In this document: piece by piece, positions 1 to 812 of the stretch
Layout: each line of letters opens with the position of its first letter
How positions within the stretch are numbered: the stretch's first letter is position 1
Origin: an uncultured Trueperaceae bacterium
Lineage (GTDB): Bacteria > Deinococcota > Deinococci > Deinococcales > Trueperaceae
Length of the DNA stretch: 64,000 bases
Reading direction: 5' to 3'
Assembly: GCA_963799485.1 (NCBI GenBank)
Contig: CAWCXJ010000007.1
Coordinates: forward strand, 320,001 to 384,000
Position numbers and translations under genes: made by a program
Notes under the pieces: model-generated
What the model saw: only the letters and a program-made list of their open reading frames with translations
Database searches by the model: none
What the model was told of the DNA's origin: nothing

Positions 1-164
1 TCAAGAACGATGCGGCTCGGCTGTAGATGCCTCAGCAGCTTGACCAACTCGCCGATACCGTCTGGCGTGTTGGCGTGTGAAAGGCGTTCACCGCTTGGTA
101 TGATCGCGATATCGAGACGGTACTTGGCGACGTCTACGCCAGCCACCAACACTTCGTTAAGCAT
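1..164 (-). CDS. IS110-family transposase/recombinase, N-terminal part (runs off the window edge)
   Basis: Manual translation MLNEVLVAGVDVAKYRLDIAIIPSG...LQPSRIVLE shows the GxDVAK and IVLE motifs of the RuvC-like DEDD domain; RBS GGAGGT upstream of the ATG at 164. Confidence 0.9.
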   Translation of the reverse strand, partial: MLNEVLVAGVDVAKYRLDIAIIPSGERLSHANTPDGIGELVKLLRHLQPSRIVL

Positions 165-184
165 GTCACCTCCGTGAGACGCTC

Positions 185-335
185 CAGCGTAGCCCAACCT
201 TGCAGATGCGAGCTTATTGCTCGGGTAACTGTTCGGGCTTAGGCTGAAGACAACAGCACGACGAGACTAGCTTTTTTACGGTCTTTAGAACCTAAGGGGC
301 GACGCTCTGCCGTGCCGTGTCCCATCCTCAACATA
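185..335 (-). ncRNA. Putative IS110 bridge RNA (target-binding and donor-binding loops)
   Basis: Two stem/internal-loop/hairpin modules; guide GTCGCCCCT (295-303) matches flank GTAGCCCCT (338-346) at 8/9; ends approximate. Confidence 0.75.
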
Positions 336-339
336 CAAG

Positions 340-523
340 GGGCTACCCCTGAACTCATCAGCTTGAGTATTCAAGAAGTTCGCCGCCTACTCGCTCGGCT
401 TATCTGGCACCACTCCCTTGATCCACCCCGAGTCCTTGTCTGGTCTTGCCGGCGTCGGCGTCGTCAAGCCAGAGCTAAAGCCGCTCACTTCAAACGAAGA
501 GGGTACTATCTGCGGCTGTAGTA
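340..523 (+). pseudogene. IS701-family transposase C-terminal remnant and element end
   Basis: LISLSIQEVRRLLARLIW...WSCRRRRRQARAKAAHFKRR and the terminal CTGCGGCTGTAGTA resemble IS701-type 3' ends; interrupted at the IS110 boundary. Confidence 0.7.
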
Positions 524-551
524 AAAAACTTGTAACACCGGAAAGACGAAG

Positions 552-587
552 AAAAAGGCGGACAGCTATTTAGCGTGTTCGCCTTTT
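552..587 (-). terminator. Intrinsic terminator downstream of tRNA-Leu
   Basis: AAAAGGCGGACA...TGTTCGCCTTTT stem followed by a U-tract on the minus strand. Confidence 0.7.
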
Positions 588-590
588 CGG

Positions 591-677
591 TGGTGCCGAG
601 AATGGGACTTGAACCCACACCCTCTTGCGAGGACTAGCTCCTGAAGCTAGCGCGTCTACCGATTCCGCCATCTCGGC
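591..677 (-). tRNA. tRNA-Leu(CAG)
   Basis: GCCGAGA acceptor stem, anticodon arm CTAGC-TTCAGGA-GCTAG, long variable arm, GTTCAAG T-loop, encoded CCA. Confidence 0.97.
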
Positions 678-692
678 GAGTTCAGGAAGTGC

Positions 693-721
693 AGTCTAAC
701 AAGAATATAAAGGGTTGACAA
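693..721 (-). promoter_or_regulatory. Sigma70-type promoter of tRNA-Leu
   Basis: Minus strand TTGTCA-17 bp-TAGACT. Confidence 0.65.
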
Positions 722-812
722 GACACCTATGCTCGTCCCAAAATTGGGAGCGCTCGACGAACTGACGGGTGAGCGGGTAAAGTTGACAAGACACCTATGC
801 TCGTCCCAAAAT
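714..812. repeat. Two identical 31-bp direct repeats with a 37-bp spacer
   Basis: GTTGACAAGACACCTATGCTCGTCCCAAAAT at 714-744 and 782-812. Confidence 0.95.

Follow-up and report, generated by a model that had tools for sequence, protein, structure and literature searches.

The 64,000-nucleotide window analyzed here (positions 320001–384000 of contig C7 from an uncultured Trueperaceae bacterium) opens inside a mobile element. Positions 165–346 of its minus strand very probably form the noncoding left end of an intact IS110-group insertion sequence, which encodes a bridge RNA and would move by a cycle like that of IS621. The element is 1135 bp in length when its CT core is counted once (C7:319203–320337, minus strand) and extends past the left edge of the window; the remainder was read from the genome sequence. 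A first-pass annotation had proposed a bridge RNA of an IS110 element at this position. The proposal is borne out by the boundaries of the element, by its four genomic copies, by the protein family and its catalytic residues, by covariation within the RNA structure, and by covariation of the guides with the flanks. The strings quoted in that annotation are all present on the minus strand at the positions given, among them an outer stem formed by GACACGGCACGGCAGAG (321–305) and CTCGTCGTGCTGTTGTC (265–249) and two left guides, GTCGCCCCT (303–295) and ACAGTTACC (232–224). At the level of sequence, every feature that defines the IS110 group is found in this element.

The boundaries were read from the copies. 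Four full-length copies were identified in the genome by blastn (100% identity for three of them and 99.9% for the fourth); the copy reaching into the window is referred to as copy A. Identity among the four begins at CCCCT-TGTAT and stops at GTTGCT-TTTTT, and the flanks outside are unrelated. The right junction had been expected to combine a donor end resembling ACAGT with a CT core and a run of T; all four copies carry ...ACAGTTG-CT followed by TTTTT. The terminus that had been predicted in full, ACAGTTAC(T), was close to the real ACAGTTG-CT and departs from it where the guide has an A and the end has a G. In copy A, the junction lies 17 nt past the stop codon and continues into TTTTTAGTGC. 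The left halves of the four targets read GTAGCCC, GAGCCCC, TTGACCC, and CGTCCCC, each before CT, and the TTTTT of the right halves is succeeded by A, G, A, and G. Thus, CCC-CT-TTTTT alone is common to the four insertion sites, and this portion of the anticipated target, GTCGCCC-CT-TTTTT, was retained; the rest of the left half varies. The expectation that the flanks of other copies would be related to the guide was also correct, with CCC-CT being common to both. When two remnants are counted along with the four copies, CCC-CT closes 6/6 left junctions in the genome.

The same CT core is found on both sides of the element, and terminal inverted repeats are absent (4/4 copies). The left end comprises 173 nt of noncoding sequence and the right end only the 17 nt after the stop codon. 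A long noncoding left end combined with a short right end is the layout described for the IS110 group by Durrant et al. 2024 (PMC11208160). Membership in the IS1111 group was considered and rejected from the short right end and the left-end position of the RNA.

The four copies account for every match to PF01548 in the genome. The element was not found in the five same-genus genomes that were searched, and one of 40 other genomes searched (G035) carries a relative with 65% DNA identity. Since the copies are 99.9–100% identical and the element was not found in the same-genus genomes, their presence in one strain suggests a recent spread. The element is apparently recently active and otherwise an ordinary member of the IS110 family. 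That it is instead a decayed relic, its four copies arising from segmental duplication rather than transposition, has very little probability. A relic would be in keeping with a left donor guide that mismatches its own end and with the two truncated left-end remnants in the genome; however, the copies cease to be identical precisely where the element ends, their flanks have nothing in common outside the 10-bp site, the reading frame and catalytic residues are intact, and the near-identity of copies that were not found in the five same-genus genomes points to recent spread.

The first of the two remnants (C6:714982–715140; L005 2482–2640, minus strand) is an isolated left end whose bridge-RNA region is complete; it was identified as a 161-nt match at 75.8% identity. 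Its flank reads GAGACCC-CT, its left guides differ from those of copy A, and no transposase follows; the remnant sits amid fragments of transposases, ISL3-like among others. The assembly contains no IS110 transposase cognate to it, with PF01548 matches confined to the four copies. The second remnant (C12:16641–16680; L006 1641–1680) is a 40-nt match at 95% identity that retains approximately the 35 first bases of the same left end, flanked by TGACCCC-CT and succeeded by unrelated sequence.

The recombinase is encoded by an intact frame of 314 amino acids with a TGA stop codon. Searches against Pfam identified PF01548 (DEDD_Tnp_IS110; E = 4.4e-26, 92 bits versus a cut-off of 29) and PF02371 (Transposase_20; E = 7.2e-18, 65.2 bits versus a cut-off of 21.3). 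The protein thus has the DEDD RuvC-like domain at its N terminus and the Tnp domain at its C terminus that characterize recombinases of the group. Residues 3–307 match residues 5–316 of the IS621 transposase (8wt6_A, E = 2.6e-41), and residues 4–307 match the ISCro4 transposase (9t56_A, E = 1.4e-40). From positions counted by hand on the alignment to IS621, residues D11, E55, D97, D100, and S236 correspond to D11, E60, D102, D105, and S241 of IS621, which form a composite active site according to Hiraizumi et al. 2024 (PMC11208158).

The structure of the RNA was assessed by comparison. A scan of species-representative genomes produced 531 relatives, of which the best 80 were kept as 79 loci from many phyla with 51–60% protein identity. 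The 230 nt upstream of 78 loci were combined with copy A and the C6 remnant into an alignment of 80 rows using MAFFT without structural information; one locus (L049) was left out as it has <200 nt upstream. The structure was taken from copy A and then scored on the alignment. Overall, 84.7% of cells are paired. The value for shuffles is 73.6 +/- 0.5, and displacing the 3' partners by 1–3 columns lowers the pairing to 34–43%. Changes on both sides are observed in 26/30 pairs versus 18.4 +/- 1.8 in shuffles.

In the target loop, the inner 12 pairs of the stem are 92.4% paired, with both-side changes in 11/12, and it is to this extent that the outer stem first drawn for the loop holds; its four outermost pairs (GACA/UGUC) are not conserved (39% paired). 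The donor-loop stem had been drawn as AGCCUAA/UUGGGCU, a pairing that was discarded with 39.3% of cells paired versus 76.6% for AGCCC/GGGCU (239–235 with 195–191). The four inner pairs of the replacement are 84–96% paired, and the C6 remnant presents a compensatory C-G to U-A change in this stem. The two-loop structure that had been expected in homologs is kept throughout the 80-row alignment. The comparison settles this point: both loops of the RNA are maintained across the alignment, with compensatory changes.

The bridge RNA is predicted to be compact, roughly 135 nt, and to lack a 5' stem-loop. In the position of that stem-loop, a gap in the alignment is shared by copy A and about a dozen homologs. 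The predicted start is approximately 7 nt after a -10-like hexamer, at 323–322, which would place it flush with the target-loop stem.

A comparison of the guides with the sequences they would pair with was made over the same alignment. For the left junctions, 74 of the 80 rows were usable, with six dropped for a short flank or an unaligned terminus, and 69 remained after collapsing identical guide-plus-flank pairs. For each row, the right end was taken as the best match, within 320 nt around the gene end, to that row's own left donor guide plus CT, with at most one mismatch allowed. By this procedure 70/80 right junctions were usable (10 dropped because there was no right end within one guide mismatch, or no right end) and 56 remained after duplicates were collapsed. 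The right target guide matches the right flank at a mean of 4.34 of five positions, 33/56 being perfect, as compared to 1.35 for 3062 mismatched pairs. Positions 6 and 7 of this guide are at chance (0.16, 0.21). The left target guide, taken as the best of two registers, matches the left flank at 4.58 of seven positions over the 69 junctions versus 2.83 for 4672 mismatched pairs. By position from 1 to 9, the left-guide matches are 0.36, 0.35, 0.61, 0.70, 0.80, 0.86, 0.91, 0.90, and 0.70 against a background of 0.33–0.39 at positions 1–6 and 0.67, 0.71, and 0.42 at positions 7–9. Positions 3–9 therefore match the flank in 61–91% of junctions with positions 1–2 at background, and about five noncore bases of the left target are informative.

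On the donor side, the left donor guide agrees with the element end in 91–100% of rows at positions 1–8 and in 13% at position 9. The left donor half is variant in 15 rows (ACGG..., ACAGC..., ACAGG..., ACAGTC..., ATGG..., ACAAT..., ACCG...), and in each of them the guide and the end share the variant. The right donor half, CTTGTAT, is at least 90% conserved in the alignment. A GUAAG right donor guide is found in four of the five rows with an A at the fourth donor base and in 0/75 other rows. The handshake positions also covary. Base 1 of the target-loop handshake is complementary to donor position 7 in 68/70 rows, including three rows in which both have changed (A with T), and target position 7 is matched by base 1 of the donor-loop handshake through a Watson-Crick pair in 61/69 rows and a G-T pair in four more.

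These observations bear on the proposal that the left end is merely a structured 5' leader of the transposase gene, with the protein alone recognizing ends and target and the guides being coincidental. Such a leader would agree with an unremarkable fold energy and with donor-side sequences so conserved that identity alone would not prove pairing. It is nevertheless highly improbable since the variable segments of the loops vary in step with the variable flanks over 56–69 independent junctions, the rare donor-end variants are mirrored in the guides, the handshake positions covary, and the protein is a clear homolog of the recombinase of IS621, whose guidance by RNA is experimentally established (PMC11208160, PMC11208158). 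Across the family, the target guides covary with the flanks and the donor guides of the second loop covary with the element ends. In the present element, the guides of the first loop fit the two target halves and those of the second loop fit its own ends, with the core included in each; the exceptions are base 7 of the left donor guide and the weakly matching distal portion of the left target.

Within the element itself, AAAAAAG (277–271) is complementary to CT-TTTTT, and all four copies carry exactly CT-TTTTT. The right donor guide had been read as TGCAAG with one G:T pair to the element end. The GCAAG portion does pair with CT-TGT, the fifth donor base being a T that faces G; the guide is longer than first read, AUCUGCAAG, and AU pairs with the next AT in a discontiguous, nine-on-seven arrangement with CTTGTAT. 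The ninth base of the left donor guide is a C facing the core T, which is typical of the family given the 13% agreement at position 9, and of IS621. Regarding the handshake, C270 can pair with donor G7 and G198 can pair with target C7; the second handshake base is unpaired in both loops.

Several points weigh against a bridge RNA of this design. The minimum free energy (MFE) fold of positions 330–166 does present two modules, each with a stem, an internal loop, and a hairpin, as a folding check had been expected to find, but its energy of -57.6 kcal/mol (z = -1.06; 27/200 shuffles fold as well) is no better than that of shuffled sequences, and for this reason the test of structure must be comparative. 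The comparative test was made with a structure derived from one of the aligned sequences, a choice that in itself favors the structure over the slid controls. The same check had been extended to covariance models, and no Rfam family reached threshold on the RNA strand; a microRNA match in this search was attributed to chance. The agreement between donor guide and element end is partly circular since each right end was found by its resemblance to its own guide, although the matches lie at a fixed distance from a conserved TTGAC and the second-best matches have 2–5 mismatches in most rows. The left target guide GUCGCCC-CU (303–295) had been credited with an 8/9 match to flank and core, which is correct for copy A (6 of 7 noncore bases); its distal portion matches poorly in copies B–D (4, 4, and 3 of 7). 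The left donor guide has an A at position 7 (226) where its own right end has a G. Lastly, homology would place UU rather than CU facing the core in the left target guide, making its register uncertain by one base.

The last two points may be considered further. An A at position 7 of the left donor guide is present in five rows (this element, L027, L034, L039, and L056), and in none of the five does it match its own end (G, T, T, T, and G). The target-loop handshake base still tracks the end in these rows, and position 7 may be deliberately unpaired in the five elements. As for the register, homology with the family and with IS621 makes the G at 303 a conserved linker (in the family it falls on the near-invariant last G of CAGACCG) and thus expects the left guide to be UCGCCCC-UU (302–294), for which the noncore matches are 3, 5, 5, and 4 of 7 in copies A–D. 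Because both the guide and the target consist of C and T runs, the two registers are physically almost equivalent.

From these data, an alternative can be drawn in which the element and its RNA are the same and either the crossover or the left-guide register is shifted by one base, so that UCGCCCC-UU faces a TT core, or faces CT by means of a U-G wobble. Apart from the linker G, the shifted register fits 42/69 family junctions, it raises the scores of copies B, C, and D and the C12 remnant to 5, 5, 4, and 5 of 7 from 4, 4, 3, and 3, and the CTT present at both junctions leaves the boundary ambiguous by one T. In addition, metagenome run X5 contains a variant with 97% identity in which this register reads UCGCCCC-CU. 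Copy A, on the other hand, fits 303–295 far better (6 versus 3 of 7). Exactly five T follow the CT in 4/4 copies with a non-T sixth base, as fits a five-base guide anchored on a CT core, whereas a TT core would leave only four conserved T. The family core is CT, as reflected in left-guide matches of 0.90 and 0.70 at positions 8–9 and in a conserved AG among the right guides. On balance, the shift is considered unlikely, and the element is described here with a CT core.

A related suggestion, advanced tentatively and regarded as doubtful, is that the left guide is loose. Its core-facing UU would wobble with CT through a U-G pair and slip along the C and T runs, and with the nonpairing A at donor position 7, the RNA would specify little beyond CCC-CT-TTTTT. 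If true, this would represent a natural low-stringency, half-match-like mode that allows many terminator-like sites.

The public runs containing the element are DNA metagenomes searched as Logan contigs. One run has a 1147-nt contig consisting of the element with 5–6 shared flank bases. Run X5, a rock metagenome, contains the approximately 97% identical variant in low-depth contigs only, with four differences in the RNA region at window positions 295, 293, 275, and 247; the target loop contains three of the four. One change makes the left guide UCGCCCC-CU, a 7/7 match to an unoccupied site in the present genome, and another places G for A in the right guide, where wobble pairing with T is still possible.

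The genome contains 11 further unoccupied CCCCTTTTTT sites, including GCCGCCC-CT-TTTTT (C7:506058) and TCGCCCC-CT-TTTTT (C8:75367, minus strand). Among the occupied sites, site A forms the 3' arm of a small hairpin (AGGGG-TAG-CCCCT), site D ends a small GC hairpin, site B is inside a strong hairpin, and site C has none. A target hairpin was rejected as a family trait: 64 left flanks average -3.36 kcal/mol versus -3.42 kcal/mol for nearby control windows (Wilcoxon p = 0.75). With no excess in hairpin stability, a structural gate is not supported at the level of the family.

Expression of the element may depend on the joining of its ends. The sequence TTGACA (L001 2223–2218) overlaps the transposase stop codon, 15 nt ahead of the element end, and joining of the ends produces TTGACA - 17 nt - TATGTT. 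In the integrated copy, no -35 hexamer is present at that distance from TATGTT. TTGAC is found at the same position in 49/70 homologous right ends, and TTGA[CT] within 2 nt in 59/70. The joined ends thus contain a candidate promoter of the kind that is formed across the circle junction of IS110 elements according to Durrant et al. 2024 (PMC11208160).

Transcription, RNA ends, binding, and catalysis are all taken by analogy from IS621 in the cycle that is proposed for this element. The element would leave as a circle in which the right end and left end are joined, and the resulting promoter would transcribe the bridge RNA and the recombinase. The donor loop would then bind the circle junction, ACAGTTG-CT-TGTAT, and the target loop a genomic site of the form nn(n)CCC-CT-TTTTT. 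The DEDD/serine recombinase would swap strands at the CT core with the assistance of one handshake base per loop. The features on which this cycle is based are collected in Table 1.

Table 1. Features of the IS110-group element in the window, in window coordinates and in order of position.
Position	Strand	Feature	Basis
1..164	-	First 54 codons of the 314-aa IS110-family recombinase; rest at L001 2220–3164	Pfam, structure matches
169..173	-	Ribosome-binding site GGAGG, 5 bases ahead of the ATG at 164–162	Sequence
191..195	-	Donor-loop stem, 3' strand, GGGCU	Alignment pairing
197..207	-	Right donor guide AUCUGCAAG (207–199), then handshake GU (198–197)	Pairing with CTTGTAT; covariation
209..223	-	Donor-loop inner hairpin CGAGC-AATAA-GCTCG	5 pairs, 88.8% paired
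224..232	-	Left donor guide ACAGUUAC(C)	Comparison with right end ACAGTTG-CT
235..239	-	Donor-loop stem, 5' strand, AGCCC, then GA linker (234–233)	76.6% paired
249..265	-	Target-loop stem, 3' strand	Alignment pairing
269..277	-	Right target guide AAAAAAG (277–271; five bases plus AG facing the core), then handshake CU (270–269)	Right flanks TTTTT, 4/4
280..292	-	Target-loop inner hairpin, then GU linker (279–278)	4 pairs, 92.8% paired
294..303	-	Left target guide region GUCGCCCCUU; first-pass register 303–295, homology register 302–294	69 junctions
305..321	-	Target-loop stem, 5' strand, with bulged A at 308	Inner 12 pairs 92.4% paired, 80 rows
330..335	-	-10-like hexamer TATGTT, 2 nt inside the left end	Sequence; sigma-70-type promoter predicted only after joining right-end TTGACA
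333..337	-	Left terminus TGTAT; with the core, right donor half CT-TGTAT	Start of identity among four copies
338..346	-	Left half of the insertion site: GTAGCCC (346–340) plus core CT (339–338)	Junctions of copies and remnants

A link to a pair of described RNAs was provided by the Rfam model sX15 (RF02234), the only model to align with this region aside from the chance microRNA match. Positions 1–159 of the model align end to end with window positions 173–331 on the plus strand, which is opposite to the RNA strand, with a score of 26.4 bits. Among eight loci scanned with E values up to 0.01, the only match was to L073 1334–1492 (minus strand, 39.6 bits), again opposite to the transposase strand. 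As a model of the bridge RNA itself, sX15 was rejected since both scores are below the gathering score of 55 bits and both matches are antisense. The sX15 RNA and its complement, asX7, were described on the Xanthomonas plasmid pXCV183 by Schmidtke et al. 2011 (PMC3300014), who also describe ten homologs in Stenotrophomonas maltophilia K279a. At the type locus on pXCV183 (L099; NC_007507.1 114500–118500, 1687–2060, minus strand), the asX7 strand contains an IS110-group left end with both loops, GCCCGAACAGTTGCC, followed by a transposase start, MNGIGIDV..., that is cut off after a few codons. From this arrangement, asX7 is probably a bridge RNA and sX15 an RNA antisense to it. A literature search on sX15 and asX7 found no paper linking them to bridge RNAs.

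With respect to the surroundings of the element, a tRNA-Leu(CAG) gene is located at window positions 591–677 (minus strand), approximately 250 nt from the element, and is conserved in 30/30 relatives searched. When the left flank was searched against relatives, only its tRNA-Leu part (query 254–363) was found, and the 250 nt adjoining the element are present in this genome only; as a result, no pre-insertion site can be read. Parts of window 338–590 recur on contigs C14 and C6, and this interval may be the edge of a strain-specific insert beside the tRNA-Leu gene. Just upstream of tRNA-Leu, a direct repeat of approximately 31 nt (...TTTTGGGACGAGCATAGGTGTCTTGTCAAC...) occurs twice, at 782–812 and 714–744 (minus strand).

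The element is a new member of the IS110 group whose closest relatives have 60% protein identity among the best 80 of 531 and 65% DNA identity in the genomes searched. Its recombinase may already be listed in the supplementary tables of Durrant et al. 2024. The known mechanism is unchanged by the finding: IS110 bridge recombination is already covered by PMC11208160 and PMC11208158, excision and handshake effects by PMC13626964, half-match insertion by 10.64898/2026.08.31.748434, and target stem-loops by 10.64898/2026.03.19.712850. What is added is a documented natural example of a bridge recombinase that is compact (1135 bp) and probably recently active, with a T-rich target, a seven-base right target guide, and a short RNA predicted to lack a 5' stem-loop. 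The 80-row comparison identifies the guide bases that matter in this subfamily, positions 3–9 of the left target and 1–5 of the right target, and demonstrates natural covariation at the handshake positions. To tool builders, the element offers a candidate small ortholog. For genome annotation, it illustrates that the guides, the target, and an unseen right end are readable from a left end alone.

Among known systems, the IS1111 group has the same recombinase family and the same principle of RNA guidance. The guide RNA of the IS1111 group is called seekRNA. It is located in a long right end, and the group has subterminal inverted repeats of 7–17 bp; in contrast, the right end here spans just 17 nt past the stop codon, and it is the left end that encodes the RNA. 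ISCro4 (9t56) is a second solved homolog of the recombinase, compared here at the level of protein sequence. ISPpu10 of Pseudomonas putida is an IS110 element with a target that has a GC-rich stem-loop on its 5' side (10.64898/2026.03.19.712850), and hairpins are likewise present at sites A, D, and B; unlike in ISPpu10, there is no hairpin excess across the family among the 64 homologous left flanks.

The closest parallel is with IS621 of Escherichia coli (PMC11208160, PMC11208158, 8wt6), as described in these reports. Both have a DEDD and serine recombinase and a CT core, and in both the left end encodes a bridge RNA that contains one loop for the target and one for the donor. The parts of each loop follow the same order, with a bulged-A stem, a linker, the left guide, a one-base linker, a hairpin, a two-base linker, a right guide ending in AG, two handshake bases, a linker, and the closing stem strand. 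The GU linker in the target loop has its counterpart in G72-U73 of IS621. The right donor guide is similarly discontiguous, nine on seven with a G-T pair, pairing of the left donor guide does not continue past the first base of the core, and a promoter, here a predicted one, spans the junction. The 5' stem-loop is absent here, and the predicted RNA is approximately 135 nt as compared to 177 nt in IS621. The right target guide has 5+2 bases rather than 2+2, and about five left-target positions are informative in this subfamily. Lastly, the target is a C run, CT, and a T run, and the left donor guide carries a natural mismatch at position 7.

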